NCBI GenBank assembly: GCA_966243015.1 | Contig: CBIMES010000001.1 | Coordinates: 214,837-278,836 of the forward strand | From: an uncultured bacterium | GTDB lineage: Bacteria; Patescibacteriota; Minisyncoccia; Phycocordibacterales; UBA6065 | Direction: 5' to 3' | DNA: 64,000 nucleotides | Program-made: the position numbers and the translations under genes | Part shown: positions 4,177-60,462 of the stretch, in pieces | Position numbering within the stretch: position 1 is the stretch's first letter | How the letters are laid out: every line of letters starts with the position of its first letter | Notes under the pieces: generated by a model | Seen by the model: the letters and a program-made list of their open reading frames with translations, nothing else | Databases searched by the model: none | What the model was told of the DNA's origin: nothing

Positions 4177-4536
4177 ATGGCTACCACCAAAGCAAAGAAG
4201 ACCGAGACCTCAGCTGATACCTTCGCGGTTATCATGACCGGAGGCAAGCAGTACCAGGTTCGCGTAGGCGACGAGCTCAAGATCGAGAAGATCACGGGCG
4301 AGCACAAGGTCGGCGACAAGCTCACCTTCGACAAGGTTCTCCTCGTCGACGCAGCGGGTGAGACCAAGATCGGCGCTCCAGAGGTCAAGGGCGCAACCGT
4401 ATCTGCCGAGATCAAGGAGATCGGCCGACTCCCTAAGGTCACCGTTGTTCACTACAAGCAGAAGTCAAAGTACTTCAAGAAGTACGGCCACAAGCAGCCT
4501 TTCTTCAAGGTAGCGATCACCTCGATCGCAGCATAA
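4177..4536 (+). CDS. rplU: 50S ribosomal protein L21 with a short N-terminal Lys/Thr-rich extension
   Basis: Translation (FAVIMTGGKQYQVRVGDELKIEKI…VVHYKQKSKYFKKYGHKQPFFKV) is a typical L21. The internal ATG at 4177 is chosen over the ORF-track start at 4102. A terminator hairpin follows at ~4540-4567. Confidence 0.9.
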   Translation: MATTKAKKTETSADTFAVIMTGGKQYQVRVGDELKIEKITGEHKVGDKLTFDKVLLVDAAGETKIGAPEVKGATVSAEIKEIGRLPKVTVVHYKQKSKYFKKYGHKQPFFKVAITSIAA

Positions 4537-4602
4537 CAAAAAGCCCCGCTCAAGCGGGGCTTTTGCTGTGTACATTGATGGTCGATAGACTATAATCAAA
4601 TT

Positions 4603-5427
4603 ATGAATAATCGTAGGATCGGGTTCACGCTCATCGAGCTTCTCGTCGTCATAGCGATCATCGGTCTTCTTTCGTCGGTTGTCCTCGCGAGCCTTAACTC
4701 TGCCCGAGAGAGGGCTCGCCTCGCGGCGGCCCAGTCTTTTGCATCGCAGACGTATCGCGCCCTCGGGGCCTCTGCTGCGGGAGCCTGGAACTTCGAGGGC
4801 CAGTCCGCCTCAATCGCGACTGACTTGTCGGGAAACAATAACGGCGGCACGATCTCGGGTTCAGTCACCTATGTCAGCGGTCCCGTGTCCTCCTCCGTCG
4901 CGATTGGCCTCTTCTCGGACTCCTACGTGCAAATTGTCGATGATCCCTCGCTCAACATGGGCACGGGCGATTTCACCATCATGGCCTGGGTCCGCACCGC
5001 GGGCTACGTTGCCCACGGATCAGCCTGGAACATCCTTATCGGCAAGGGAGACTGTTGCATTAGCCCTGGGTACGCTATCGGGTACGGCGCCAACAATCTG
5101 CCGGGATTATTCCTCGGGTCAGCCCAGGTCGCCGTCGCGAGCACGGCAATCGGTGATGACAAGTGGCATCATATCGCGGCGGTAAGGAAGGGCACTGAAG
5201 TCAAAATGTACGTTGACGGCAGGGAAAGCGGCTCGGGCACAGTGAGCGGCTCCACGAGCGCTAGCCCGTCGTCAGCTTTGTTTATAGGGAAGGATTCAAA
5301 CGGCGTGGTGAGGGCGATACGGGGATATGTCGATGATGTCGTCCTCGTTCCTTCGGCGCTCACGGCGTCAGAGGTGTTTCTCAGGTATGCAGAGAGCTCT
5401 CCGGCCCCTGTCGTCGCTACTGAGTAG
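4603..5427 (+). CDS. type IV pilin-like protein (prepilin N-terminal methylation/cleavage motif) with a C-terminal LamG/ConA-like jelly-roll domain
   Basis: N-terminus MNNRRIGFTLIELLVVIAIIGLLSSVVLASLN is a class III signal peptide (G/FTLIE). The C-terminal region (GDFTIMAWVRT…KWHHIAAV…MYVDG…FIGKD…RGYVDDVVLVPSALTASEV) is a Laminin_G_3-type fold. TATAAT lies 6 nt upstream of the ATG. Confidence 0.8.
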   Translation: MNNRRIGFTLIELLVVIAIIGLLSSVVLASLNSARERARLAAAQSFASQTYRALGASAAGAWNFEGQSASIATDLSGNNNGGTISGSVTYVSGPVSSSVAIGLFSDSYVQIVDDPSLNMGTGDFTIMAWVRTAGYVAHGSAWNILIGKGDCCISPGYAIGYGANNLPGLFLGSAQVAVASTAIGDDKWHHIAAVRKGTEVKMYVDGRESGSGTVSGSTSASPSSALFIGKDSNGVVRAIRGYVDDVVLVPSALTASEVFLRYAESSPAPVVATE

Positions 5428-6565
5428 TGTTCGTTGCCGGTCCTTGTCTTTGAAGGCGCGACCTCAGCGCTTCCACGAATTTCTCGGTGTCAAAGTTTCC
5501 CGCTCGTTCCCTGCATGCGCGGTCGTATCTGCCGGGGTCTCGTGCGAGGTTGTCGGAGACTTCTCTCATGGCTGCCGCGAGCCGTCGCCCGTCGACGTCC
5601 TTTACGAGCAAACCTGTCTCTCCGTTGACAACGGTTTCCCTGTAACCTCCCTTGTCAGACGCGACGACTGGCTTTCCGGCGGCCATGGCCTCGACCGTCG
5701 ACATGCCGAAGTCCTCGTCGAGGGCCGTTGCGAGAAGGCCTTTTGCGCCCGCGTAGAGCGCGACAAGCTCTTCCTGGGGGACCCAGCTCCTGATGGACAC
5801 GTTGGATGGGCAGATTCTGTCGAGCTCCTCTTTGTAGCCCTCGAACTGTATCGCCCCTCGCTCGTAGCTGCCCACTATGACGAGTCTTTCCTCGGGCATG
5901 AGCGACAGCGCCTCCATTTGTATCTCGATGCGCTTGGGCCGCATGATTCTGTTTACCGACAGCCAGTATCCAGGCTTCTCGTTTGTCGCGGCTGTCGGCA
6001 GCTCAAACCTTTTCGTGTCCGTGGGCGGATAGGCTATCTCCGCCTCCTTTCGATAGTATCTTCTGATGCGATCCTGGGTGTTCGCGGAATTGCACATCCA
6101 GGCCCCGACGCTTTTCGCGTACCGCAGGGTGATTCTCCTGTTCATGTGTGCCCACAGGTCAAAAAGAGGCCTCTTCCATCGGGTCTTGACGATCTCGTCT
6201 CTGACGTAATCCTTGAATTCCCAGAGCTCGTTCAGGGGCGAGTGGGCGTACCACAGATTTGGCGAGTGGTTGACGGCGGCCGACATGGCCCAGTCGCCGC
6301 ATATGACGTACCTGTCATATGATTTTCCGAGGCTGAGCCTTCTGAAGCGCCAGAGCGTCGCCTGATGTCTGAAAGGGGCCTTCTTTGGCACCCGCCCGAT
6401 GGATTTGACGCGAGGGAGAACGTCCCCGAATCCCATGTTCCTAATATGCCCTTCGCTCACGTTCGTCGTGTAGACGTCCGCGCCCAGGGCTCGGGCAAGG
6501 GTGAGCGTGACGATTTCCGCCCCGCCGATGTTGTCCATGAAGCTGTGGAATATGGCGACTCTCAT
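5417..6565 (-). CDS. glycosyltransferase family 4 (GT-B, RfaG-like)
   Basis: 382 aa. The C-terminal EX7E-like region (…DEDFGMSTVEAMAAGKPVVASDKGGYRETV…) is typical of GT4. Confidence 0.8.
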   Translation of the reverse strand: MRVAIFHSFMDNIGGAEIVTLTLARALGADVYTTNVSEGHIRNMGFGDVLPRVKSIGRVPKKAPFRHQATLWRFRRLSLGKSYDRYVICGDWAMSAAVNHSPNLWYAHSPLNELWEFKDYVRDEIVKTRWKRPLFDLWAHMNRRITLRYAKSVGAWMCNSANTQDRIRRYYRKEAEIAYPPTDTKRFELPTAATNEKPGYWLSVNRIMRPKRIEIQMEALSLMPEERLVIVGSYERGAIQFEGYKEELDRICPSNVSIRSWVPQEELVALYAGAKGLLATALDEDFGMSTVEAMAAGKPVVASDKGGYRETVVNGETGLLVKDVDGRRLAAAMREVSDNLARDPGRYDRACRERAGNFDTEKFVEALRSRLQRQGPATNTTQ

Positions 6566-12033: not shown

Positions 12034-12489
12034 ATGAGAATATTCATCGCAAGCGATCACGCCGGCTTCGAGCTCAAGAGGTTTCTCGTAGAGAGGCTCT
12101 CCCTCGCGGGACACGATGTGCGCGACCTGGGCGCGAAGGAGTTTGCCCCAGAGGATGACTATCCTGACTTCATATCTCTGGTGGGCAAGGAGATATCGCG
12201 CGAGCCAAGCTCGGTCAAGGGTATCGTCATCGGAGGCTCCGGCCAGGGCGAGGCGATTTGCGCCAATAAATTCTATGGCGTACGCGCCGTGGTCTATTAC
12301 GGCGGAAACACCGACATCGTGCGCCTCTCGCGCGAGCATAACGATGCGAATGTGCTCTCTCTCGGCGCACGGTTTCTCTCTGCGACTGACGCGCTCAACG
12401 CAGTCAATCTCTGGCTTGCCACGGCGTTCTCTGGGGACGAGAGGCACAAGAGGCGCATCCAAAAGCTCTATAACATCACCCATCTCTAG
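12034..12489 (+). CDS. rpiB: ribose-5-phosphate isomerase B (RpiB/LacAB family)
   Basis: 151 aa (MRIFIASDHAGFELK…GSGQGEAICANK…) typical of RpiB. An extended -10 (TGaTAGAAT) sits 6 nt upstream of the ATG. Confidence 0.9.
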   Translation: MRIFIASDHAGFELKRFLVERLSLAGHDVRDLGAKEFAPEDDYPDFISLVGKEISREPSSVKGIVIGGSGQGEAICANKFYGVRAVVYYGGNTDIVRLSREHNDANVLSLGARFLSATDALNAVNLWLATAFSGDERHKRRIQKLYNITHL

Positions 12490-12491
12490 GC

Positions 12492-12998
12492 ATGAGGACC
12501 AAGGGCTTTACTTTGATCGAGCTCCTCGTCGTGATATCTATTATCGCGCTCCTTTCGAGCGTTGTGCTGGCAAGCCTGAATACGGCGCGCGCCAAGGCGC
12601 GTGATTCCGAGAGGATCGCCGAGCTCAAGGCGGTTCAGACTGCCCTTGAGCTGTACCGAACTGACAACGGCTCCTATCCGTCCACGGGCGGCACCGGCAA
12701 CTGGCGGGGTATGTGCTCGAACTTCAACCCGGGCGGAACATATACGACCTCAGGCGCGTCCGGATACGTTCCTGGCCTCGCGCCGACCTACGTATCGGTT
12801 TTGCCACGCGATCCCAAGGAGGTGGCCGATTCGTGCTATGTCTACACCTCGAACGGCGTGGACTACATGATGCTTGCCTGGAGGACTGTCGAGGCGAACA
12901 TCGGTAACATTCCCGTCGCCTTGCAGAGGCAGAATACTTCATTTGGCTCGACTGACAGGACCTACGCGGTCTATTCGAGCGGCGCGGTCAGCTGGTAA
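12492..12998 (+). CDS. type IV pilin-like protein (short, 168 aa)
   Basis: N-terminus MRTKGFTLIELLVVISIIALLSSVVLASLN is a prepilin methylation motif. Paralogue of the gene at 17951..18436. Confidence 0.8.
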   Translation: MRTKGFTLIELLVVISIIALLSSVVLASLNTARAKARDSERIAELKAVQTALELYRTDNGSYPSTGGTGNWRGMCSNFNPGGTYTTSGASGYVPGLAPTYVSVLPRDPKEVADSCYVYTSNGVDYMMLAWRTVEANIGNIPVALQRQNTSFGSTDRTYAVYSSGAVSW

Positions 12999-16451: not shown

Positions 16452-17087
16452 CTAGAGAATGACCTCTTGCTTTCTTCCCAAGAGCGCGTTCTTGATGGTC
16501 TCGGCGTCTGAATACTCGAGTTCGGTGCCGGTGGAGAGTCCGCGGCCCAGGGTCGATACCTTGATGCCGTGTGCCTTCACGAGGGGTGCCACAAGACCTT
16601 CGACGTACTCGCGGGTGTGCTCTCCCTCTGTGTTGAGGGAGAGGGCAAGGATGATTTCCTTGAGCTCTCCCGCCCGCGCCTTGTGCTCGATAATTTCGAG
16701 GAGTTCCCGAGACCTGATTTTCGAGTCAGGGTCTTTCTCGATGAGGGAGAGGGCGTCTCCGAGCACAAAATAGAAGCCGTTGTAGACATGGCTTTTCTCG
16801 ATGGCGTCGAGATCGACGTCCTTGGCGACGACCATGAGCGCCGTCGTATCGCGGGTTGTGTCGCGACAGATAACGCAGAGGTCCGTGTCGACGCGCTTCT
16901 TGTCGAAGTAGCGATGGCAGGACGAGCACATGGACACGTGAGAGGCGAGATCGAGGATCTCGCGGGCGAGAGACGACCTGAGACTCTCGGGCGAGTTGAG
17001 GAGGAAGTAAACGAATCGGCGCGCCTGGCGCGGTCCGATGCCGGGGAACTTCTTGAAGATGTCGTGAAGGCGGTTGAGGCTGTCCAT
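16452..17087 (-). CDS. recR: recombination protein RecR
   Basis: N-terminal HhH (LNRLHDIFKKFPGIGPRQARRF), a C4 zinc finger (CSSCHRY…CVIC) and a Toprim domain. The internal Met is chosen as the start because a minus-strand extended -10 (TGcTATACT) sits 7 nt upstream. Confidence 0.9.
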   Translation of the reverse strand: MDSLNRLHDIFKKFPGIGPRQARRFVYFLLNSPESLRSSLAREILDLASHVSMCSSCHRYFDKKRVDTDLCVICRDTTRDTTALMVVAKDVDLDAIEKSHVYNGFYFVLGDALSLIEKDPDSKIRSRELLEIIEHKARAGELKEIILALSLNTEGEHTREYVEGLVAPLVKAHGIKVSTLGRGLSTGTELEYSDAETIKNALLGRKQEVIL

Positions 17088-17133
17088 GGCCACTAGTATA
17101 GCAAAACCAACCCTTACTTCGTATAATGGGAAC

Positions 17134-17940
17134 ATGCATCAGACTCGTCCCTCAAGGGGCTTCAACCTCATCGAGCTCCTCGTTGTCATCTCCATCATCG
17201 CGCTCCTCTCGAGCGTCGTGCTCGCGAGTTTGGGCACTGCACGAGAGCGTGCGAGAATCGCCGCTGCCCGCCAGTTTGGCTCTATGGTTGATCGCGTTGC
17301 GGGCGATCAGGCTGTTGGTATCTGGGATTTCGACGAATGTTCGGGTGCGACGGCCAATGATAGGTCTGGCAATGGCTACACAGGAACCCTGACGGGTTCG
17401 CCGTCATGGTCCTCCGACACACCTTCAGGTTCTGGCTGCTCCATACTCTTCAGCGGGGCAAATTGGGTCGCGCTCGCTAACAGTGCCTCGCTCGATGTCG
17501 GTCAAACCTTTACTATCTCCGCCTGGATTAAGCCTGACGCTCTCACGGCGGGCTGGCAGGATGTGCTTGCGGGTGGTATCAATGACGTGGGCTTTGGCTA
17601 CAATCCCACAAATGGGGGTGTCATGCGACTCACCAAGGTAAGCATCATTGATGCGACTCCGTCGCCGACAGTGGTTACGACGGGCGCTTGGCATCACGTC
17701 GCAGCAGTCTTCTCCTCGGGGTCTCTCACTTACTATCTTGACGGAAAGGAGGCGGGGAAATCGACGTTCGCCCAGACCTTTACATCTGGTCTCAAGCGCA
17801 TCGGTTCACGAGTATCGCTCTCAGGTTCGTTCGCCGGCCGCATTGATCAAGTCCGCGTCTTCACCAAGGACCTGACCGCGGCAGAGGTTAATCTTATATT
17901 CGCCTCGGAGAAAGCCTCGATTCATGTCGCCTCTAATTAA
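17134..17940 (+). CDS. type IV pilin-like protein with a C-terminal LamG/ConA-like domain
   Basis: N-terminus MHQTRPSRGFNLIELLVVISIIALLSSVVLASLG. The C-terminal region (…FTISAWIKPDA…AWHHVAAVFSSGSLTYYLDGKEAG…RIDQVRVFTKDLTAAEV) is LamG-like. TATAAT lies 6 nt upstream of the ATG. Confidence 0.8.
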   Translation: MHQTRPSRGFNLIELLVVISIIALLSSVVLASLGTARERARIAAARQFGSMVDRVAGDQAVGIWDFDECSGATANDRSGNGYTGTLTGSPSWSSDTPSGSGCSILFSGANWVALANSASLDVGQTFTISAWIKPDALTAGWQDVLAGGINDVGFGYNPTNGGVMRLTKVSIIDATPSPTVVTTGAWHHVAAVFSSGSLTYYLDGKEAGKSTFAQTFTSGLKRIGSRVSLSGSFAGRIDQVRVFTKDLTAAEVNLIFASEKASIHVASN

Positions 17941-17950
17941 TTTTGCTCTT

Positions 17951-18436
17951 ATGAAAACACGAAATCGCGGCTTCACCCTCATCGAGCTCCTTGTCGTCAT
18001 CTCCATCATCGCGCTCCTCTCGAGTGTCGTTCTCGCGAGCTTAAACGCCGCAAGGTCGAAGGCCAGGGACTCCGAGCGTCTCGCTGACGCCCGACAGCTG
18101 CGAAATGCCGTTGAGCTCTATCGCAACGACAGTGGTAGTTACCCAAGCACCTCGGGTAACTGGAGGGGGGTCTGCTCGAGCTTCGGTAGCCATGGCACGA
18201 CGGGATCAGGTGGCTATGTGCCGAATCTCGCCCCAACCTACATACCTGTTCTACCAACGGACCCAAAGCCGCTGGGGACGAACAATTGCTATCTCTACAG
18301 GTCGGACGGTATCGACTATATGATTCTCGTTTACGGGACAGTAGAGAACACGCCTATCAATCCCGCGCTTCTCCGGCCAAACTATCCAACGGAGCGTAAC
18401 TACGCCTTCTACAGTGAAGGGGCGAGGATGTGGTAG
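17951..18436 (+). CDS. type IV pilin-like protein (short, 162 aa)
   Basis: N-terminus MKTRNRGFTLIELLVVISIIALLSSVVLASLN. Paralogue of the gene at 12492..12998 with about 60% identity over the body. A terminator follows at ~18458-18500. Confidence 0.8.
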   Translation: MKTRNRGFTLIELLVVISIIALLSSVVLASLNAARSKARDSERLADARQLRNAVELYRNDSGSYPSTSGNWRGVCSSFGSHGTTGSGGYVPNLAPTYIPVLPTDPKPLGTNNCYLYRSDGIDYMILVYGTVENTPINPALLRPNYPTERNYAFYSEGARMW

Positions 18437-20014: not shown

Positions 20015-20134
20015 GGTGTGCCCATTGTATGTCATCAAGCGGACGTCAAGGAAGGGTAAAGGGAGGATAAAACTGGGGAGGGCATGTGGATAATTAATTT
20101 GATGCGGAAAAGCCGTGTTAATATCTACTATGAT

Positions 20135-23100
20135 ATGAAGCAAATAAAACGCGCGCTGGCGGGTCTTCTTGTTCTCGCAATGACCATCCCGCAGATTACT
20201 TTCTCACAGTCATCGGGAGAGACCCTTTACCTAAATGAGTTCGACGGCGCGGCGCCCGCCATATCGTATGCCTATGGTGAGGACTCGCCGTGGTACGACA
20301 CTACCTTCGGCTCCATCAGCGCCCAGGGCGGAATCCTGTCACTCTCGGGCATCACCGGCACGGATACGAGCGTCTTTTTCACCATTCCCGGGAGTGGCGA
20401 TGTCTTTCCGGGTGAAGTCAGCCCACTCGGGCTCATTGTTAGCGCACGGGTCAGGATCGTTTCCGATCTGCCTGACGTTGGCCTTACCCTTTTCACCGAC
20501 AATTGGCAGGGGGATAGCGCGTTTACCTCAGTCACGAATGAATGGGTGACCCTTGAGTTTAATGAGACGATTGATTTTACCGATTTTGGCTTTGAGCTGA
20601 GTTCTTACGACGGATCCTTCTCGCCGTCAGACACGATCGAGATCGACTGGGTCAAGGTTTCCAGCCCGGCCCTCGTACCAGGCGTCTATTTCAACGCGGC
20701 GTCTGACAATGACTGGTCAAACGTATCGAACTGGTGGGCAGACGCAGAGTTTACCGTCCCCGCAAACGTCCTTCCGGGTTCTGAGAGTGACGTCGTCATC
20801 TCTGGTCTCGTCTCGAGCGACAGCTCGGGCGCGGCAACCGTCAACTCGGCCGTATTCACGGACGGCTCGGAGCTGGTTGACATAACCCTTACCGCCGCCA
20901 CGACGACTTTCGAGGGGAGTGCCATCAACCGCGGTACCGTGGAAGGCAACGCCATATTTACTTCTGCCGAAGCGGGTACGCTCACTCTTGGGGACGGCAT
21001 GTACTGGGGGACTGTCAACGGATCCGTCTTTGGGTCGGACGACGCTCCTATAACCAGCTTTATCTTTAATGCGTCGAGCGTAAACGTCGGTACCGTTCCC
21101 GGCAATGCGACCTTCAACGCGGGCGCCCAGAATGACGGAACGGTGCAGGGCGACGCCCAGGTAAACTACCCCTTCGTCCTACCTCTTGGAGGAACTGTCG
21201 AGGGAAATGTCACGTACTCAGGCTACACAACCTATTATTACAACAACGCCGCCTCTGACGGAGACTGGGCAAATCTCGCGAATTGGTGGCTTGATTCGGG
21301 GCACACAACAAATCCGAGCGATTTGCCGGGAAATGAGAGCGACGTCTATATTCAGGCGAGCGTGTCTTCAAGCGGCGTTGGTCCCGTGGAAGTCGCCACC
21401 GCCACCTTCTCCTCGGGAGTAACCTGGGGCAGTGGCCTCTCGCTGACGGTTTCCGATGGGGCTGTGTTTAACGCCGCGCTTAATAGTGGATCGGTTACGG
21501 GATCGACCACGTTCAGCGGCAGCACGGCGAGGAACAATCTCGCGGGTTCCGTTACTGGAAACGTCACTTTCGACGATGGGTCTCGAAACTATGGATCGAT
21601 CACGGGCCCCGTTGTCTTTAACGGCGGTTCACGTCACGAGTTCGGCGCTCTTATCACGGGCAACGCCGTGTTCAACGACAGTTTGACTCAGTCGGGCTCA
21701 ACGATCGCGGGAGAGGCTGTCTTCAATAACAGCAATAACAGCGCAACCGTCGGTTCATCCACTTTCAACGGATCGAGCGCGAACCTTGGAGGAACGGTGT
21801 CGGGCGCCGTGTTCAATGATTCGAGCTACAACCAGCGCACCATCTCGGGCAACGCGGTGTTCAACGATTCGAGTTATAACAGCGGCGCGAGCATATATGT
21901 CGTCGTGACGGGAAACGCCACGTTCAACGGCAACTCGTATAACTCGGGAACGGTGCAGGGTAACGCTGAGTTCAATGATAGCTCTTCAAACGTTCTGCCC
22001 GCGAATCCTTCTCTGGGTCTCGTCGCTGGCGACGCGGTATTTAGGGACTCAAGCAGCAACACGGGTACGATACAGGGAAACGCTGACGTGTACTTCCCGG
22101 TCACCATGCCTCTCGGGGGAAGCGTCGGTGGCGCTTTGACCTATTACGACTACCCAGAAGGCGTGTATTTCAATAACGCGGCTGCTGACGGGGACTGGGC
22201 GAACATAGCCAACTGGTGGGCTGACGCCGGCTTCACCCAGCAGGCGGGATCCGTGCCAGGTGCGAACGCGGACGTCTTCGTGTCTGCTCCTGTTACGCAA
22301 AACACCGGCGACCCTGTCTCGGTCAACTCAATTCAGTTTTCCTCGGGGGCGTATAACGAGATCGAGGTTACGGTTGCCGACGGCGTGGTCTTTACCGGCG
22401 GTTCCTACAATAACGGCACGGTGAACGGGGCGGCCATTTTCGAGGATGGAAGCTACAATAGCAACACTGAGGGCGCCACGGTCAACGGTAGCGCGATTTT
22501 CCAGGGATCAGCCTATAACCAGGGCGTCATTACGGGTGATGCTATTTATGCATCTTCCACGGGTGGCACGTTGACCGTGCTGTCAGGCGGCGCCTGGAGC
22601 GGTTCTGTCGGCGGCACCGTGAGGGGCGGCGACGGCAACCCGATAACTGACTTCGTGTTCGAGGACGGGTCGTACAACAGCAGCGGCGTGACGGTTCCTG
22701 GCAACGCCACCTTCAGTGGATCGGCCTATAACTCTGGAACGGTGTCGGGCAATGCTACTTTCAACGGCTCGGCCTATAACGCCGGCGCCGTTCTTGGTGA
22801 CGCCACCTACTCATCCGCGTCAGGCGGCACGCTGACAATCTCTTCTGGGCTCTCCTGGACGGGCTCGGTTGGAGGGACGATCAGGGGCGGCGATAGCGAC
22901 CCTATAACCGACTTCGTCTTCGAGGACGGCTCGTATAACAGCTATGGTGTCACGGTTCCCGGTAACGCCACGTTCAACGGCTCGGCATACAACTCGGGAA
23001 CAACGACGGGTGACGCTGTCTTTAACGACAGTTCGTACAACTCTGGAACGGTGCAGGGTAACGCCATCTTCAATGGCTCTTCGTACAACTCAAATTTCTT

Positions 23101-25657
23101 CACTGTTGATGGTAACGCGACGTTCAACGACTCGTCTCATAACTCGGGTACCGTCATGGGCGACGCCGTCTTTAACGACAGCTCGTATAACGAGGGACTC
23201 GTGGAGGGTGACGCGACGTACTCCTGGGTCACGGGCACCTCTATCACGATCGAATCGGGCAACGCGTGGACAAGGACTGTCGCCGGCACCCTGAGAAATG
23301 TGAACGGCGATCCGGTGACACTCTTCATATTCGAAGACGGCTCGTATAACGATGGGGTAGTGTCTGGTGATGCCGTCTTTAACGGCACCGCGTACAACAA
23401 CGGAATCGTCACGGGTGACGCAACCTACGCTTCAACCACGGGAGGGGTGATGACGGTGACGGGCAGCTGGAACGGCAATGTGCTCGGCACGGTGAGGGGC
23501 GGCGATAACAATCCTATAAGCGACTTTGTCTTCGAGGACGGGTCGTACAACTTCGGAACGGCCCGGGGCAACGCGACGTTCAACGGGAATTCCTATAACA
23601 GGGGCACGACCACGGGCGACGCCATTTTCAACGACACCTCTTACAACTACTATGGTCACGTCGTCATGGGAGACGCCACCTTCAACGACGACTCGTTCAA
23701 CAGGGGAGCCATTCTCGGCGACGCGACCTATTCGTCCGCGTCGGGCGGCGTGATAACAATAAATTCGGGAATTTCCTGGATGGGTTCCGTGGCCGGAACT
23801 ATCAGGGGCGGCGACGGCAACCCGATAACCGACTTCGTGTTCGAGGACGGGTCGTATAATGCCGGAACTGTTTCGGGCGACGCGACCTTCAACGACGGCT
23901 CGTATAGCCAGGAAGGTGCGGTCGTCACGGGCAGCGCCACGTTCAACGGCTCGGCATACAACTCGGGAACGGTGCGGGGCGACGCGGTTTACGCCTCCTC
24001 GACTGAAGGCGTTATGAGGTTTGTTTCGGATGACGTGTATCTACAGGGTGTTGTTCAGGGGACGATCAGGGGCGGCGACGGTGTCGCGATAACCGACTTC
24101 GTCTTTGAGGATAACTCGCTGAATGCTGGCAATATAGTCGGAAACACTACTTTCGGCGGCAATTCGTCAAACCTGGGAACCACCACCGGTTCGACGGTCT
24201 TCAACGAGTCTTCTTCTAACGACAACGGGGGCGTCGTCTCGGGAGATATTTCCTTCAACGGGGAGGCCTCTAACAGAGGCAGGTTGATCGGCGATGCTGT
24301 CTTTAACGCGACCTCGACGAATCACGGCACGATAGTCGGAAACCCCGTCTTCAATGATTCGTCCTACGCCAGCGCAGGAGTTATACAGGGCAATGCCACT
24401 TTCAATGACAGCTCACATAACGCAGGGGATTCGACTGTCACGGGCGACGCCGTTTTCAACGACCAGGCTTTTAAACAGGGTACAGTGTCTGGCAATGCTA
24501 CCTTCTACGATGATTCCTTGCATCAGCATGGAACTATTGCAGGAAATGCCGTTTTCAACGGGCGATCATCAAACATCGCCACCGTCTCTGGCGACGCGAC
24601 CTTCAATGATGACTCTCGCAACGGTTCTGGCGGCACCGTCACGGGTGACGCTACCTTCAACAACGCCTCGATCGCTGCCACCGGATCCTTCGGCGACAGG
24701 GTTATCCGTCGCTTTACCATCGCAACGTCGACCGCTTTGAACTTCCTTACCGACGGTGGAAGGAATGACTGGGTAATCATCGCGGACGGTATCGTCCTGG
24801 ATCTGTCCGAAGCCACCTATAACGGAAGCAATGTGTTCCAGGCACGAAACGGCGGCTCCTTTGTCCCTGAGCTCAATCCGATTCTCGTCATCGCTCAGCC
24901 GAACTCATCAATCGTGACCTCGTGGTCGCCCCTGATATCGTGGGGTAACGCGTCGGTCTGTGAGTATTCGTTCTCAGGGGAGAACGCCTATGACGAGGTC
25001 GACTGTTCTCTTGCGGGAAGCGACATACCCGCTCCCGCCGACGGGTTGCGAACCCTGTTGGTCCGAGCGACAGGCGTCGAGGGAAACATAAACGAGAAGT
25101 CTTTCTCCTTTAGGTACTCTCCTCCGACCGCGCCCGTCTTTGCTTCGTCAAATCCGACGGTTCAGATGGGAACGAGTCTTTCCCGAAAGGTGGCGAACAT
25201 ACGAAGCCAGTCGGCGACAATTGTTTCGTCAGCCGTCGGAGTCTCCTTGGCCGGTCCAGGAAGCGTCGTCTCCTTCACGAAGTCTGTCCTCGAGCGCCTC
25301 ATCAACGTTCTTCGTGGACCATCGGCCGTGCCCGTTTCCATCGGCATTACTCCGGCGGGAATTGTGACCTCCTTCTCCCCGGCGGTCTTCCCTCCGGGCG
25401 AGAGGCTCTTGTCCTCGTGCCCTGACATGGTCACTGGTTCAGTCGGTCCTTGCGTGCAGTCCCTTCAGAAGTTTCTGAACTCTTCTGGATTTACCCTCGT
25501 GGAGGCTGGTCCAGGCTCGTCGGAGAATGAGACCACCTACTTCGGGCCTGCCACGCAGGCGGCACTGGTAAGGTTCCAGAAAGACAAGGGGATCTCTCCG
25601 GCCACCGGCCACTTTGGTTCAAAGACGAAGGCCTTCATATCGACCCTTGGACTCTGA
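20135..25657 (+). CDS. giant secreted repeat protein (~1840 aa): signal peptide, long array of 16-residue G(N/D)A(T/V)FN(G/D)S(S/A)YNxGxV beta-solenoid-like repeats nested in ~80-100-aa higher-order repeats, C-terminal peptidoglycan-binding (PG_binding_1-like) domain
   Basis: Signal peptide MKQIKRALAGLLVLAMTIPQITFSQ. There are hundreds of GNATFNGSAYNSGTV-type units and three copies of a ~60-aa YFNNAA(A/S)DGDWAN(I/L)ANWW module. The C-terminal …CVQSLQKFLNSSGFTLVEAGPGSSENETTYFGPATQAALVRFQKDKGI… fits the PG_binding_1 pattern. Confidence 0.75.
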   Translation: MKQIKRALAGLLVLAMTIPQITFSQSSGETLYLNEFDGAAPAISYAYGEDSPWYDTTFGSISAQGGILSLSGITGTDTSVFFTIPGSGDVFPGEVSPLGLIVSARVRIVSDLPDVGLTLFTDNWQGDSAFTSVTNEWVTLEFNETIDFTDFGFELSSYDGSFSPSDTIEIDWVKVSSPALVPGVYFNAASDNDWSNVSNWWADAEFTVPANVLPGSESDVVISGLVSSDSSGAATVNSAVFTDGSELVDITLTAATTTFEGSAINRGTVEGNAIFTSAEAGTLTLGDGMYWGTVNGSVFGSDDAPITSFIFNASSVNVGTVPGNATFNAGAQNDGTVQGDAQVNYPFVLPLGGTVEGNVTYSGYTTYYYNNAASDGDWANLANWWLDSGHTTNPSDLPGNESDVYIQASVSSSGVGPVEVATATFSSGVTWGSGLSLTVSDGAVFNAALNSGSVTGSTTFSGSTARNNLAGSVTGNVTFDDGSRNYGSITGPVVFNGGSRHEFGALITGNAVFNDSLTQSGSTIAGEAVFNNSNNSATVGSSTFNGSSANLGGTVSGAVFNDSSYNQRTISGNAVFNDSSYNSGASIYVVVTGNATFNGNSYNSGTVQGNAEFNDSSSNVLPANPSLGLVAGDAVFRDSSSNTGTIQGNADVYFPVTMPLGGSVGGALTYYDYPEGVYFNNAAADGDWANIANWWADAGFTQQAGSVPGANADVFVSAPVTQNTGDPVSVNSIQFSSGAYNEIEVTVADGVVFTGGSYNNGTVNGAAIFEDGSYNSNTEGATVNGSAIFQGSAYNQGVITGDAIYASSTGGTLTVLSGGAWSGSVGGTVRGGDGNPITDFVFEDGSYNSSGVTVPGNATFSGSAYNSGTVSGNATFNGSAYNAGAVLGDATYSSASGGTLTISSGLSWTGSVGGTIRGGDSDPITDFVFEDGSYNSYGVTVPGNATFNGSAYNSGTTTGDAVFNDSSYNSGTVQGNAIFNGSSYNSNFFTVDGNATFNDSSHNSGTVMGDAVFNDSSYNEGLVEGDATYSWVTGTSITIESGNAWTRTVAGTLRNVNGDPVTLFIFEDGSYNDGVVSGDAVFNGTAYNNGIVTGDATYASTTGGVMTVTGSWNGNVLGTVRGGDNNPISDFVFEDGSYNFGTARGNATFNGNSYNRGTTTGDAIFNDTSYNYYGHVVMGDATFNDDSFNRGAILGDATYSSASGGVITINSGISWMGSVAGTIRGGDGNPITDFVFEDGSYNAGTVSGDATFNDGSYSQEGAVVTGSATFNGSAYNSGTVRGDAVYASSTEGVMRFVSDDVYLQGVVQGTIRGGDGVAITDFVFEDNSLNAGNIVGNTTFGGNSSNLGTTTGSTVFNESSSNDNGGVVSGDISFNGEASNRGRLIGDAVFNATSTNHGTIVGNPVFNDSSYASAGVIQGNATFNDSSHNAGDSTVTGDAVFNDQAFKQGTVSGNATFYDDSLHQHGTIAGNAVFNGRSSNIATVSGDATFNDDSRNGSGGTVTGDATFNNASIAATGSFGDRVIRRFTIATSTALNFLTDGGRNDWVIIADGIVLDLSEATYNGSNVFQARNGGSFVPELNPILVIAQPNSSIVTSWSPLISWGNASVCEYSFSGENAYDEVDCSLAGSDIPAPADGLRTLLVRATGVEGNINEKSFSFRYSPPTAPVFASSNPTVQMGTSLSRKVANIRSQSATIVSSAVGVSLAGPGSVVSFTKSVLERLINVLRGPSAVPVSIGITPAGIVTSFSPAVFPPGERLLSSCPDMVTGSVGPCVQSLQKFLNSSGFTLVEAGPGSSENETTYFGPATQAALVRFQKDKGISPATGHFGSKTKAFISTLGL
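22560..24200 (+). repeat. tandem coding repeats (~240-300 nt period, 80-90% nucleotide identity) inside the giant gene
   Basis: Recurring DNA segments ggcggcgacggcaacccgataac(t/c)gacttcgt(g/c)ttcgaggacgg(g/c)tcgta(c/t)aac encode the repeated peptide RGGDGNPITDFVFEDGSYN, present at least 6 times. Confidence 0.6.
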
Positions 25658-25717
25658 TACATTTAGTTGCGGGAGCGCGGGTTGTGTATCGCGCAAACCT
25701 GCGCTAGGGTAGGGTCT

Positions 25718-27151
25718 ATGAAAAAGACCTTGATTGTGGCCCTGGCTATCCTTGCCCTGGCGCCATATGCCGCCGAGGCGGCGTGGTGGAACCCATTTGG
25801 TTGGGGTAAAAGCCCTCGCCCCGCCGTGGTTTCGGACAACGCGGATCAGGCGGCGACCTCGAGCGAGTCCACTGACGGCCTCTCTGTCTTGCCGACAACT
25901 GACGAGCTCTACAGGAGAATCGCCGAGCTCGAGGGAAAAATTGACGTTCTTCGCGCCCAGCTCGCCGAGGCAAGGGAAGGGAAATCAACGCCCGCCCCGG
26001 TCGTGGCTGTCGTCGATGTCGAGGCGGACAGCCCGCGTGACCTTTCCGCGAACGGCAAGGCGTCGGTTGTCCTCGTCGAGGGTCCGAAGGGTACCTCCGC
26101 GGGATCCGTCATTGATGCCAAGGGATTTATCGTCACTACCTCAAAGATATTGGGAACGTCGACGTCGGCGACGGTTGTCCTCTCGAGCGGCGCAAAGAGG
26201 CAGGCTCATCTGATTGGGCTTGAGGTGGCGAACAACGTGGCCGTCCTTCAGCTCTCTGACGCCAAGGCGTCATCTTATGCCTCGTACAGGACGGGTGCGC
26301 TACCTTCCGTTGGCGATACCTTGTACATGGTTGGATTCAATGTTGGAGGTGTTTCGGCAAGTGCGATTCCTGCCGTCGTCGCCCAGAACTCGGCGTCGTC
26401 GTTCCAGGTGACGGTCGAGTCAAAGCCTTTCGACACAAGCGTTCTCGTGACCTCAAATGGCTCTCTCGTGGCAATTCCATCGTCGTCGAGCTGTAAGGTG
26501 CTCGAGGAGGGGAGGACCTGTCTCAAGTACGCCGTTTCGGCGACGGTGTCATCCTCGCGCATACCACTTCTCGCGCAAGGCCTGAGGCTTTACGGCCCCT
26601 CGAAAGTCCCGACAAAGGAGGAGGAGGCCTTTCGCGGCTACATCGAATCACTCTATCGTGCGGTGACTGATGCCACTTCAGTTACGTCGGCCATCGACGC
26701 CGTGAGTGGAAAAAACTCTTTCGACTTCCTGAACGGCAGGCTCGCCGACGACGAGAACGGCAAGATCGCCAGACTCTACGCAACCAAGCTCAAGAACGCC
26801 GCTGACAGCCTTTCCCGCGCTTACGACTCGCTCAGGTCCGCGTCGTACACGTTCCGCACGGGGCTCATCAATGACAGCGCTCTTACCATCTATCTCAATG
26901 GCTATCAGAGGAAGACCATCCAGGCGCTTCAGGCAGAAAACGACGCGCGCCTCAAGAAGTATCAGGAGCAAATGGATTTCTGGACCAGGAAGAAGAACGA
27001 GTACGACTCGTACATCTCGGCGCCTGACAAAGCGACGCATGACCTGCTTATGACCGAAGGCGTCTTTGTCGAGAGTGGCGCGGGCACCCTCTCGAAGGAG
27101 AGGCAGAGGATTCTCGAAAGCCTGTCGAGCGACGTAAGGGGACAGTTCTAG
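25718..27151 (+). CDS. secreted protein with a degenerate trypsin-like (S1C/HtrA-type) fold lacking the catalytic His/Asp, plus a C-terminal coiled-coil region
   Basis: Signal peptide MKKTLIVALAILALAPYAAEA. The region GSVIDAKGFIVTTSKIL…ATVVLSSGAKRQAHLIGLEVANNVAVLQLSD…VGDTLYMVGFNVG parallels the DegP core (GSGFII…TNAHVV…DIALLKI…), but His is replaced by Ser and Asp by Asn. Confidence 0.55.
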   Translation: MKKTLIVALAILALAPYAAEAAWWNPFGWGKSPRPAVVSDNADQAATSSESTDGLSVLPTTDELYRRIAELEGKIDVLRAQLAEAREGKSTPAPVVAVVDVEADSPRDLSANGKASVVLVEGPKGTSAGSVIDAKGFIVTTSKILGTSTSATVVLSSGAKRQAHLIGLEVANNVAVLQLSDAKASSYASYRTGALPSVGDTLYMVGFNVGGVSASAIPAVVAQNSASSFQVTVESKPFDTSVLVTSNGSLVAIPSSSSCKVLEEGRTCLKYAVSATVSSSRIPLLAQGLRLYGPSKVPTKEEEAFRGYIESLYRAVTDATSVTSAIDAVSGKNSFDFLNGRLADDENGKIARLYATKLKNAADSLSRAYDSLRSASYTFRTGLINDSALTIYLNGYQRKTIQALQAENDARLKKYQEQMDFWTRKKNEYDSYISAPDKATHDLLMTEGVFVESGAGTLSKERQRILESLSSDVRGQF

Positions 27152-27501
27152 GATCCCGATTCGAGCGCGACGATTCGGGTCTCGTGATCCCTCCACATTC
27201 CTATCATCGTGTCACAGTGGTCCTCGACCTTGTCGAGCCTGATTTCAACCTTCCCCATTTTTATTTTGAGGTCAGTAACGTCGGATTGGAGGGTGTACAG
27301 CGCGCGTTCCGTATTGTCCTTGAAATCGTACATCTTTGTTTTAAATTCGCGCAATTCGGTTGTGAGCCCATTGATTTGGGATTGGGTGTCTGCGAAGCCT
27401 TGTCCGACGACGATGGCAAAAGCATCGATGGCCCGAGTGATGATGGTCTCGACATCTTTTTTCGTCGCAGGTATGCCTTGTGAAGCTCTCTTCCGCGTCA
27501 T
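27148..27501 (-). CDS. hypothetical coiled-coil protein (117 aa)
   Basis: Internal Met (MTRKRASQG…) of ORF-track ORF 27148..27564. Sits downstream of the cysS terminator, and its stop overlaps the stop of the convergent gene at 25718..27151. Confidence 0.4.
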   Translation of the reverse strand: MTRKRASQGIPATKKDVETIITRAIDAFAIVVGQGFADTQSQINGLTTELREFKTKMYDFKDNTERALYTLQSDVTDLKIKMGKVEIRLDKVEDHCDTMIGMWRDHETRIVALESGS

Positions 27502-27544
27502 GGAGAAAGTATAAATCACGCATGCCCGATTCCTCATAAATTGA

Positions 27545-27588
27545 AAATAAAATGCCGGCCGCAAATGCGGCCGGCATTTCTGCTTTAT
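27545..27588 (-). terminator. intrinsic terminator of cysS (gccggccgcaaatgcggccggc + TTTTATTTT on the minus strand)
   Basis: Perfect 9-bp GC stem followed by a T-tract, immediately after the cysS stop. Confidence 0.6.
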
Positions 27589-47655: not shown

Positions 47656-48462
47656 CTACTGGCCGGGAACGGCTGCGTACACGCGAGCATTCGAGAGGTT
47701 GCCGTAGAGGGAATAGGTCCCACCGTACCCCATGCCGCCGAGCCCCATCTCGCCGGGCATTGTGGCGAGGGGCGCCGCGATGCTTCCGCTGCCGACCTGG
47801 GTTCCGTTTGCGTAAAGGGTTACCGATCCCCCGTTGCGAACTGCGGCGATATGAGTCCATTTGTTCAAAGGAGCCACGCCCGCCTGCGAAATCACCGAGG
47901 GCCAGGCGCTGCCCGTGAATACGCCAAACGACACCCCTCCGTTCGAGGTGAGTCCGAGGTTGTAGTTCATGTCAGAGTATCTTCCCCCACGAACCACGGC
48001 TGTACCCGCACCGCCGTATGCGGTAGGACGCACCCACGCGGACACCGTCACGTCACCTGTTATGCCGAGTTGTGGATTGGCGGTGCCAACGGGAGCGATT
48101 GCAAGACTCGTGTCGCCGCCAGAAAGAAGAAGGGAGCATCTGTTGTCGTAGGGGCCCTGGTTAGAGGACCATGATGCGGCGGCCTGAAGAGTTGCTGTGA
48201 CGCTCCTTCCCGATTTATCTGCCGCGGCCACGCCAGAGCATTCGTCAAAATCCCACCACCCCACAGCCCTGTCCCCGAGGGTTCTGTCGAGCATGGATGC
48301 GAACTGCTTGCCCGCGGCGAGACGGGCCCTGTCACGGGCCGCGTTCACGCTCGCCAAGACCACGCTCGAGAGGAGGCCGATGATCGATATGACCACGAGG
48401 AGCTCGATGAGAGTGAAGCCGTGTGAATCTCTTATGTTATCCAGTTTGATTAGAGTGGACAT
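47656..48462 (-). CDS. type IV pilin-like protein with a LamG/ConA-like domain
   Basis: N-terminus …DSHGFTLIELLVVISIIGLLSSVVLASVN. The C-terminal region (…VTVSAWVRPTAYGG…KWTHIAAVRNGGSVTLYANGTQVGSG…) is LamG-like. Confidence 0.8.
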   Translation of the reverse strand: MSTLIKLDNIRDSHGFTLIELLVVISIIGLLSSVVLASVNAARDRARLAAGKQFASMLDRTLGDRAVGWWDFDECSGVAAADKSGRSVTATLQAAASWSSNQGPYDNRCSLLLSGGDTSLAIAPVGTANPQLGITGDVTVSAWVRPTAYGGAGTAVVRGGRYSDMNYNLGLTSNGGVSFGVFTGSAWPSVISQAGVAPLNKWTHIAAVRNGGSVTLYANGTQVGSGSIAAPLATMPGEMGLGGMGYGGTYSLYGNLSNARVYAAVPGQ

Positions 48463-48472
48463 GCTTTGGGTT

Positions 48473-49237
48473 TTATTCGAGAGTTGGGTAATACACTCTC
48501 AACGAGTCAATTTGACCGACCCAGTACTCGCTTGGCAACGTCTGCCACGAGCGGGCAAAAGCCGTTTGGACGCCACCCATGTCGATAATGCTGGCGCTCG
48601 GCAGCGAGACCTCCTTGTCGAGCTTACCGTCGATGTAGAACTTGTAGCCGACGCCTCCCTCGAGCAGAAACGCGATGTGAGTCCACTTGTCGAGGGGAAT
48701 GGTCGCGTTCGACTGCGGCCAGTGGTTGCCGCCTGCGTTTATCATGAGCTGAAGCCTGCGCGATGGGTTGACCCCGAAGTAGAGAAAGCCCGGAAAGCCG
48801 TTCGCGATCATGCTATAGCCGCCGCTCACATACTGGGTCGGCTTGACCCATGTCATGAGCAGGATTTTACCGTTTGCCCCGCCGACCAGATCAATGCTCG
48901 ACCTCAGGTCTGGAACTGATACATAGCTATTCCCGTCGAAAGAGAGGGCTCCGCCGCTCGGGCCTGCCGTCCACTGGGGCGTTCCCGAGAAGGATCCGTG
49001 TCTTCCAGCGCCGGAAATATCCTGGGGAGCGCTACCGGATCCGTCGTTGAGCTCCCATATTCCGAGGGCGTTGTTGGCGTAGGCGCTGTGCATGCTTGCC
49101 GCAAAACGAATTCCCGAGGATATGCGCGCCTTCTCCCGAGCAGCGTTCACGCTCGACAGCACGACGCTCGAGAGGAGGCCGATGATCGATATGACCACGA
49201 GGAGCTCGATGAGGGTGAATCCGCGCGACGCTTTCAT
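48473..49237 (-). CDS. type IV pilin-like protein with a LamG/ConA-like domain (tandem with the gene at 47656..48462)
   Basis: N-terminus MKASRGFTLIELLVVISIIGLLSSVVLSSVN. The C-terminal region (…KILLMTWVKPTQYVSGG…KWTHIAFLLEGGVGYKFYIDGKLD…) is LamG-like. An extended -10 (TGGTATAAT) sits 8 nt upstream of the ATG. Confidence 0.8.
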   Translation of the reverse strand: MKASRGFTLIELLVVISIIGLLSSVVLSSVNAAREKARISSGIRFAASMHSAYANNALGIWELNDGSGSAPQDISGAGRHGSFSGTPQWTAGPSGGALSFDGNSYVSVPDLRSSIDLVGGANGKILLMTWVKPTQYVSGGYSMIANGFPGFLYFGVNPSRRLQLMINAGGNHWPQSNATIPLDKWTHIAFLLEGGVGYKFYIDGKLDKEVSLPSASIIDMGGVQTAFARSWQTLPSEYWVGQIDSLRVYYPTLE

Positions 49238-49301
49238 GTCCTCTGATTATACCAGAACATCTGGAGCGCATGGTGTATACTTTTCCCTGAAAACCCTTCC
49301 C

Positions 49302-53064: not shown

Positions 53065-53276
53065 TAGGTATCCTTTTGTTTGAAGATCGGGCTCACGTCA
53101 TGTAAGCCTCTGTAGAAAAGATAACAAATGGTGGGTAAAGTTTTGGTAAAGATTTGCTTTACAAAAATTTCCTTGATTTCCCTAAACCGCGCCGCGAATT
53201 CCTCGGTTTAACTCGATACATCTTTTCGTGCGTTGCCATAAAAAAGCCGCGCGTGGCGGCTTGCTTGTTCTCCGTC

Positions 53277-60396: not shown

Positions 60397-60462
60397 GCAC
60401 GTCTAGTATACCAGAAAGTGTCGTTGGTTTTCTTCGACAGAGTGCCATCGTCGCTCGAAACG

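Follow-up and report, generated by a model that had tools for sequence, protein, structure and literature searches.

A giant secreted protein with a predicted beta-solenoid rod and wall-binding domain in a variable genomic slot of a Patescibacteria bacterium

Results

The giant gene and its product

The 64,000-nucleotide stretch analysed here (contig CBIMES010000001.1 of an uncultured bacterium; hereafter the window) carries a giant gene at 20135..25657 on the plus strand, encoding 1840 amino acids (aa) plus a stop codon. We predict that its product is a secreted protein composed largely of a beta-solenoid and bound to the cell wall by a C-terminal PG_binding_1 domain. The gene lies in a single unbroken open reading frame (ORF; 20084..25657, plus strand, 1857 codons), and its start is ambiguous among in-frame ATG codons at 20084, 20102 and 20135. 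The start at 20135, used in the original prediction (a model's reading of the DNA without database searches), gives the 1840-aa protein with the N-terminus MKQIKRALAGLLVLAMTIPQITFSQS; the start at 20084 is the choice of gene callers, and Shine-Dalgarno-like purine-rich runs (AAGGAAGGGTAAAGGGAGGA and GGGGAGGG) lie 5' of it at 20048-20082. All three candidate starts keep the hydrophobic signal core ALAGLLVLAMTI, and the mature protein is the same whichever start codon is used. Promoter and terminator scans flanking the gene gave scores no better than shuffled sequence. Residue numbers below are those of the 1840-aa protein.

The protein begins with a predicted Sec-type signal peptide (20135..20212, plus strand, residues 1-26) consisting of an n-region MKQIKR, the h-region ALAGLLVLAMTI and a c-region PQITFSQ/S, with the cleavage site judged by eye; it contains no lipobox. 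The core ALAGLLVLAMTI is the 12-mer with the highest hydrophobicity in the entire protein, and a whole-protein hydrophobicity scan found no transmembrane (TM)-like window outside the h-region at the threshold used. Secretion, as originally proposed, is thus supported by a signal-peptide-like N-terminus that is the sole hydrophobic segment of the protein. G, S, T, V, A and N are abundant, and there is a strong excess of acidic over basic residues (166 D+E compared to 51 K+R). The four cysteines occur as two close pairs within the two C-terminal domains, as expected for an extracytoplasmic protein. Neither an LPxTG-like motif near the C-terminus nor a C-terminal hydrophobic window, the features of a sortase anchor, was found, and no covalent or membrane anchor was detected in the protein. 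Of the features of RTX proteins, a regular-expression search found no GGxGxD motif and Pfam gave no HemolysinCabind match.

The mature protein begins with an orphan domain predicted to be all-beta (20213..20680, plus strand, residues 27-182), a putative distal head. Three solenoid cassettes follow, each beginning with a Trp-rich module (W-module) of the form FNxAAxDGDWANxANWW...LPGxxSDVxI. Cassettes 1 and 2 end in a cap, G[ND]A[DQ]V[YN][FY]PxxxPLGG[ST]VxGxxTYxxY, that leads directly into the next W-module. Cassette 1 (20681..21232, plus strand, residues 183-366) contains a W-module (DNDWSNVSNWW...LPGSESDVVI), coils, one divergent variant block and the cap GDAQVNYPFVLPLGGTVEGNVTYSGY. Cassette 2 (21233..22159, plus strand, residues 367-675) contains the second W-module, about 13 coils recognized by a coil hidden Markov model (HMM) and the cap GNADVYFPVTMPLGGSVGGALTYYDY. 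Cassette 3 (22160..24694, plus strand, residues 676-1520) is the largest, with the third W-module and about 45-50 coils arranged in a super-repeat of ~87 aa (five coils), as delineated by the coil HMM and DNA repeat families D1-D7. The three W-rich modules noted originally are real: they lie near residues 184, 378 and 688, and the family profile described below matches them at E = 2.6e-16, 1.6e-34 and 3e-37, respectively.

The solenoid is ended by a conserved C-region (24695..24880, plus strand, residues 1521-1582), which phmmer also found in 29 other proteins of the family, usually just before an immunoglobulin (Ig)-like domain. Next is a two-cysteine domain (24881..25126, plus strand, residues 1583-1664; WSPLISWG..C1609..C1624..GSDIPAP, motif C..Y...C) that is shared by 39 other members of the family, frequently in multiple copies. 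It has no Pfam match in this protein; its size, pattern and position, together with Big_7 or fn3 domains at the equivalent place in relatives, suggest that it is Ig-like. A low-complexity linker rich in S, T, V and P (25127..25414, plus strand, residues 1665-1760) leads to the PG_binding_1 domain (25415..25654, plus strand, residues 1761-1840), which has Cys1762 and Cys1773 at its start. The Pfam match to PF01471 covers residues 1772-1833 (window 25448-25633) and model positions 3-55 of 57, scoring 37 bits (E 3.8e-9) with the whole protein and 39.6 bits with the C-terminal fragment. Because the curated cutoff is 23, the C-terminal domain postulated in the original prediction is confirmed as PG_binding_1-like. 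No other Pfam or NCBIfam family reached threshold in the whole protein. Fragments of the coil region gave only sub-threshold Pfam scores, namely Bflower_2 (27 bits, cutoff 38), YmaF (19), Bactofilin (15, cutoff 27.9) and Pentapeptide_3 (12.9, cutoff 27).

The repeat region

The 16-residue unit described originally was reproduced by a position-specific consensus, G-[ND]-A-[TV]-F-N-[GD]-S-[SA]-Y-N-x-G-T-V-x. Over residues 251-1520, self-identity at a lag of 16 is 0.197 compared to 0.091 +/- 0.008 in shuffles (z = 12.7), and a further signal at lag 87 (z = 7.9) establishes a higher-order repeat with a super-period of ~87 aa. The extent of the repeat had been overestimated. In place of ~1500 residues of 16-mer, the solenoid occupies ~1,340 residues (183-1520), of which ~790 are recognizable coils and the rest W-modules, caps and variant coils; between residues 257 and 1512 the coil HMM detected ~48 units, each 16-18 residues long. 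Each ~87-aa super-unit comprises five coils, two canonical and three variant (GDATYSSASGGTLTIS / SGLSWTGSVGGTIRGG / DSDPITDFVFEDGSYN...). The variant coils form blocks of 47 aa, with one divergent copy in cassette 1 and six copies in cassette 3 that were also delimited as DNA repeats (22535-22675, 22796-22936, 23207-23347, 23414-23548, 23717-23857 and 23978-24121, plus strand). An N-x-S/T sequon in each coil was considered as a glycosylation signal and dropped, the enrichment being weak (42 compared to 31.7 +/- 4.6, z = 2.2).

Compared pairwise, the variant blocks share 47-83% identity at the protein level and 50-79% at the DNA level. The 80-90% DNA identity first reported for the higher-order repeats applies to a 60-nt core alone (82-87%), and the 261-nt unit is 70% identical. 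Given these values and a longest exact direct repeat in the gene of 36 nt, the description of the region as recombination-prone was overstated. NCBI and ENA records place the same 1857-aa product on five contigs, the longest of 494 kb, one of these places being displayed. The low repeat identity, the short longest repeat and the five-contig record make collapse or expansion of repeats during assembly unlikely, and we rejected an assembly artefact.

A family of W-capped solenoid proteins

A word-indexed search of 5.8 billion proteins returned eight relatives, all metagenomic, of 1,188-2,738 aa and 27-38% identity, some of which carry LamG, BNR or Sortilin domains. In these sequences the cap and the following W-module form a conserved junction of ~98 residues, in which the cap DVYxPxxxPLGGxVxGxxTYxxY is followed by FNxxAxDGDWxNxxNW....LPxxxxxVxI; the giant protein has three matches to this junction. 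A profile was built from an alignment of 20 junction copies (A1), in which the columns G, Y, Y, W, N, W and P are invariant. Searched exhaustively against 1.84 billion cluster representatives, it matched 622 at E <= 1e-3, 162 at E <= 1e-10 and 42 at E <= 1e-30, the 622 being clusters at 50% identity, and many of them hold two to eight junctions apiece. Word-indexed searches with the N-terminal domain and with A1 returned nothing and missed the giant protein itself, so these negatives are uninformative. Set beside the 622 matches of the exhaustive search, they indicate that indexed negatives are unreliable for low-complexity, N-rich proteins.

Source databases label the members of this family "hypothetical protein" or give no label. 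None of the members scanned has a Pfam family for the junction module, and neither the module nor the coil unit is represented in Pfam (2025 copy), NCBIfam or PHROGs. The junction module and coil unit constitute a real, sizeable and unannotated family. In the shortest relatives a full cassette, consisting of a W-module, three coils and a cap, is just ~115 aa long, which indicates that the cassette is self-contained and that its number of coils can vary.

Domain sharing was counted over 154 fetched family members. A PG_binding_1-like domain stands at the extreme C-terminus of 17 of the 154, including the protein studied here, and all nine of the other such proteins that were scanned score above the Pfam cutoff. 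Of these 17, 15 begin with a signal-like segment, and a C-terminal TM segment is absent from all of them. Across the family, LamG, BNR/Sortilin, fn3 and Big domains recur, which are typical of surface proteins. The N-terminal domain and the linker of the giant protein have counterparts in none of the other fetched members.

Four relatives without PG_binding_1 (P0004, P0005, P0007 and P0008) end in a short conserved Trp-rich tail (for example KSPFWWF, KSPWYQKLF, SPIQKLWSWFVK or ITNWFSSWFH). This tail may be an undescribed sorting or anchoring signal of Patescibacteria surface proteins.

The W-module was also encountered in viral sequences. A scan of IMG/VR identified one 8-kb viral contig (L082, UViG_3300042478_000803), which encodes at positions 4491-6503 a 503-aa protein beginning with a W-module (MATLYFNAAVDSDWANLANWW...) followed by GNATF-type coils. 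The ORF just upstream matches PHROG tail-fibre and tail-assembly families (E 1e-8 to 1e-6). Foldseek against BFVD gave one significant match, the uncharacterised 505-aa protein A0A6J5QS32 of an uncultured caudovirus (E 3.7e-7). These two data points suggest that the module is probably also used in phage receptor-binding structures, which agrees with a role in recognition or attachment.

Predicted fold

Residues 178-462 were modelled with AlphaFold2 (AF2) from a 15-row alignment of homologous cassettes (A2); they span cassette 1 with its cap and extend through the second W-module into the first coils of cassette 2. The model is all-beta, with a mean predicted local distance difference test score (pLDDT) of 90, a predicted TM-score (pTM) of 0.72 and no segment under 50; the variant block and the cap/W junction are at 85-97. 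As a prediction, a beta-solenoid is thus well backed for the segment modelled. The model takes the form of a right-handed triangular beta-helix, as in the bactofilin fold, and the nearest fold to the modelled cassette is the narrow triangular bactofilin helix (PDB 6RIA and 2N3D), at ~10% sequence identity. Other structures named for the fold comparison were the autotransporter and two-partner secretion (TPS) passengers Vag8, UpaB, Ssp, HxuA, TibA, Hbp, Hap, pertactin, EtpA, Ag43, FHA and HMW1, as well as Candida Awp adhesins, tapirins and ice-binding proteins. The original prediction held that the repeat matches no pentapeptide, hexapeptide or pectate-lyase family. This stands for Pfam and NCBIfam, where the protein and its fragments gave no match to Beta_helix/Pectate_lyase or Hexapep and only the sub-threshold Pentapeptide_3 score given above, yet the fold resembles a known one, that of the bactofilins.

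In sequence, the connection to bactofilins is distant. Bactofilin PF04519 gave no match to the whole protein at E <= 1, the best fragment reaching 15 bits (E 0.03), and searches of PDB sequences with the whole protein and with the cassette profile found no matches. Two relatives lie near the Pfam Bactofilin cutoff of 27.9 (P0054 at 32.7 bits and P0050 at 27.2). A sequence bridge to solved bactofilins was attempted by comparing P0054 with PDB, and it failed.

The model renders the 47-residue variant blocks as more strands of the same helix, with a register of 16+16+~16 that fits three degenerate coils. This suggests a continuous rod of ~70-80 coils. The canonical rise of a beta-helix is 0.48 nm per coil, and extrapolation gives a predicted rod length of roughly 35 nm.

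Genomic neighbourhood

The neighbours of the giant gene encode a pilin, DnaB, a Trypsin_2-like protein and cysteinyl-tRNA synthetase (CysRS). The closest matches to the adjacent DnaB come from Candidatus Paceibacterota metagenome-assembled genomes (88% identity), followed by those from Taylorbacteria and other Patescibacteria (64-85%), which supports a host among the ultrasmall Patescibacteria. In 50 of 52 related genomes the gene for CysRS lies within 2 kb upstream of that for DnaB (within 600 bp in 32 of them), compared to 7.55 kb here. Comparison with related genomes (L002-L081) identified the sequence between cysS and dnaB (20036-27588) as a variable slot, filled here by a 7.55-kb insert that holds the giant gene, a secreted Trypsin_2-like gene and a small minus-strand ORF. 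In the closest relative, L002, the same slot contains a different 7.7-kb cargo, consisting of two pilin-LamG genes, an SPFH protein, a homologue of the trypsin-like protein (47% identity) and an ATP-binding cassette (ABC) transporter, and L002 has no homologue of the giant gene.

No orthologue was found beside DnaB in 80 related genomes. Elsewhere, only distant mosaics were found, in the named Paceibacterota/Parcubacteria genomes L079 and L046. That of L079 has a W-module, coils, a BNR propeller, the C-region and two-cysteine domain, then another helix and a membrane segment at the C-terminus; that of L046 has three fn3 and two PG_binding_1 domains. The GC content of the insert (0.56-0.59) is like that of the window. 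The giant gene is a lineage-specific cargo in a variable surface-protein slot, with no sign of recent foreign origin, and its position in such a slot fits a fast-evolving host-interaction factor.

The Trypsin_2-like gene (25718..27151, plus strand) encodes a secreted protein of 477 aa that scores 30.3 bits with Pfam Trypsin_2 (cutoff 27.6). It begins 60 bp past the stop codon of the giant gene on the same strand, and the terminator scan found no terminator-like site between them, suggesting that the two genes are probably co-transcribed. Its catalytic His is replaced by Lys (TTSKIL compared to TAFHV in L002) and its Asp by Asn (ANNVAVL compared to ANDLAVL). The product is probably a pseudo-protease without catalytic activity. 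A perfect GC-rich hairpin of 13-14 bp, with T-runs on either strand, lies immediately beyond the cysS stop codon at 27549-27580; it resembles an intrinsic terminator that works in both directions and would close this end of the insert.

A second large secreted protein (1244 aa; 56671-60402, minus strand) has three fn3 domains, a CE2_N/GDSL-like esterase region and a C-terminal PG_binding_1 domain at 23.5 bits (cutoff 23). With two window proteins ending in it, this domain appears to be a general C-terminal wall anchor in this organism. The window further contains at least six type IV pilin-like genes with the N-terminal motif GFTLIELLVVISII (4579-5424, 12474-12995, 17068-17937 and 17924-18436 on the plus strand; 47659-48498 and 48476-49246 on the minus strand). 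Several carry a fused LamG_3 domain, and there are two overlapping or abutting pairs; this is a rich repertoire, typical of Patescibacteria. At 51928-53097 (minus strand), a protein with a Peptidase_M23 domain, a sub-threshold CBM96-like region and an N-terminus that is signal-like by eye is a candidate peptidoglycan hydrolase and could act on a host wall.

Discussion

Our analysis points to the giant protein as a probable fibre that is anchored in the wall, projects from it and serves in adhesion or recognition. After Sec export, the PG_binding_1 domain would bind the cell's own peptidoglycan (PG) non-covalently, and the linker and disulfide-bonded Ig-like domain would form a stalk. The three cassettes would stack into a single stiff, highly acidic rod of ~35 nm, holding the orphan all-beta N-terminal domain of ~155 residues that distance from the wall, where it would bind a ligand carried by a host cell, a partner cell or a surface. 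The polarity assumed here, with the C-terminus as anchor and the N-terminus outward, had been proposed originally and fits the 16 other relatives that carry a PG_binding_1-like domain at the C-terminus. Three observations suggest that the C-terminus is proximal to the cell: C-terminal PG_binding_1 recurs in the family, relatives such as L079 have C-terminal membrane-spanning segments, and the variable lectin-type domains lie N-terminally.

We infer an adhesive role by analogy with beta-helical passengers and with fibrillar adhesins that have distal ligand-binding domains, and from work on related bacteria. In Paceibacteria that parasitise methanogens, extracellular proteins containing PG-binding and Ig-like domains are highly expressed and have been proposed to function in host attachment (PMC10936435), and the epibiotic growth of Saccharibacteria requires adhesins (PMC10633639).

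Several considerations weigh against the projecting fibre. An episymbiont lifestyle of the organism is an assumption. The nearest related genomes are without the gene, which is hence dispensable for the lineage. The structural model covers 285 of ~1,340 solenoid residues, so that the length, straightness and handedness of the rod are extrapolated. A ligand-binding head is a conjecture, with the N-terminal domain modelled at a pLDDT of 48. Finally, PG_binding_1 also targets enzymes to foreign peptidoglycan, and the polarity of the protein could be reversed.

In the reversed arrangement, PG_binding_1 would grip the peptidoglycan of a host or prey bacterium and the protein would work as a grappling device, either released or tethered in some other way. 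We regard this as unlikely, although it would fit with the proposal that the PG-binding domains of Paceibacteria extracellular proteins act in host attachment, and with the frequent occurrence of PG_binding_1 on wall-degrading enzymes (PMC10936435). A putatively secreted M23 peptidase is encoded in the window, and the giant protein is without a covalent or membrane anchor. However, this polarity would leave no domain holding the protein on its producer. The C-terminal position that is otherwise taken by membrane-spanning segments in relatives (L079) points to a cell-proximal C-terminus, and the variable, orphan and lectin-like domains are on the N-terminal side.

The gene is missing from the closest relatives and lies in a variable insertion, unlike a gene for a core envelope protein, and the members of its family are mosaics with lectin-type domains (LamG and BNR/Sortilin). 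For these reasons we consider it improbable that the protein is a structural envelope component with no specific ligand, such as a spacer, protective coat or surface (S)-layer-like palisade, even though a long, rigid, wall-bound rod with such an excess of acidic residues would suit that purpose. The nearest fold is that of bactofilin, a scaffold protein, and profile scans of protein fragments found no recognisable binding domain.

The remaining explanations are far less probable. The coils have 16 residues, and flat ladders of Thr, Asn and Ser on them could bind ice, nucleate ice or bind minerals. We give this very little weight because the fold scores for ice-binding proteins are generic for any beta-helix and below those for bactofilin, no Pfam ice-nucleation or DUF3494 match was found, and the outward positions 12, 14 and 16 vary and form no strict T-x-T or T-x-N array. 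A further reading is a beta-helix enzyme. In pectate-lyase-type helices, active-site clefts are built by long T1/T3 loops. A polysaccharide lyase, glycosidase or phage-tailspike-like depolymerase is most improbable here, since a 16-residue coil is too small for such loops and no catalytic family was matched in Pfam or NCBIfam. Lastly, family members on one IMG/VR contig and in one BFVD phage protein, the location within an insertion and the internal repetition of the sequence might suggest prophage cargo (a tail-fibre gene) or an assembly artefact, but either is highly doubtful given that there are no flanking phage genes and no PHROG matches for the giant protein, that a signal peptide and wall anchor are present and the GC content is like that of the surroundings, and that no exact repeat exceeds 36 nt in a product recorded identically on five contigs.

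If the protein is a projecting fibre as we propose, it is a concrete candidate for host interaction, consisting of a modular wall-anchored rod with a unique distal domain, encoded in a hypervariable slot between housekeeping genes. How Patescibacteria recognize and hold their hosts is described as largely unknown beyond a few cultivated Saccharibacteria (PMC11665869, PMC12206443). A Pfam-style model of the junction and coil family would annotate hundreds of "hypothetical" giant proteins.

We speculate, tentatively and with doubt, that the W-capped 16-residue cassette arose as an extracellular branch, undescribed until now, of the bactofilin-type beta-helix. It would be a rod module that can be stacked, represented by at least 600 clusters, for the host-recognition fibres of Patescibacteria, and it would be reused in the tail-fibre proteins of their phages. 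Were this true, a single pool of modules would supply both the adhesins of episymbionts and the receptor-binding proteins of phages, perhaps with exchange between them, and the present protein would be a strain-specific determinant of host attachment.

Comparison with known systems

Bactofilins are small, cytoplasmic, polymer-forming scaffolds of ~6 coils. The giant protein has the predicted bactofilin (PF04519) fold in common with them and differs in sequence family, location and size: it has a signal peptide and predicted wall anchor in place of a cytoplasmic location, an estimated ~70-80 coils, and W-modules and caps in addition. A bactofilin-like helix outside the cell would be of interest to structural biologists.

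The beta-helical passengers of type V and TPS systems (pertactin, Ag43, TibA, UpaB, Hap, HMW1, FHA and EtpA) need an outer membrane together with a C-terminal beta-barrel, or a TPS domain with TpsB. No such translocator feature was found in the protein in Pfam or NCBIfam scans, which gave no autotransporter, Haemagg_act or POTRA family, and the gene neighbours encode the pilin, DnaB, Trypsin_2-like protein and CysRS. The passengers have coils of 19-25 residues compared to 16 here, and the anchor here is PG_binding_1.

Ice-nucleation proteins of the InaZ type also have 16-residue coils that form a long beta-solenoid. Their consensus, AGYGSTxTAxxxSxLx, differs from GNATFNGSSYNxGTVx of the giant protein, which has no Pfam match to them, and they are outer-membrane proteins of Gram-negative bacteria.

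Fibrillar RTX and Gram-positive wall adhesins, as described in a preprint, follow the same logic as the giant protein, with a proximal anchor, a long repetitive extender and distal ligand-binding domains (bioRxiv 10.1101/2025.09.30.679566). The extender in those adhesins is built of tandem Ig-like (BIg) domains or of Ca-bound beta-rolls, with export by a type I secretion system (T1SS) or a sortase anchor, whereas the extender here is a continuous solenoid. The extracellular PG-binding and Ig-like proteins of Ca. Paceibacteria belong to the same class of bacteria, have like domains and a proposed function in host attachment; they are set apart by their description as enzyme-like, with no W-capped 16-residue solenoid reported (PMC10936435).

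By membership, the giant protein is not a type V/TPS, RTX, LPXTG, pectate-lyase, pentapeptide or hexapeptide protein. By function, it would be akin to a beta-helical fibrous adhesin, a familiar solution that leaves current ideas in place.

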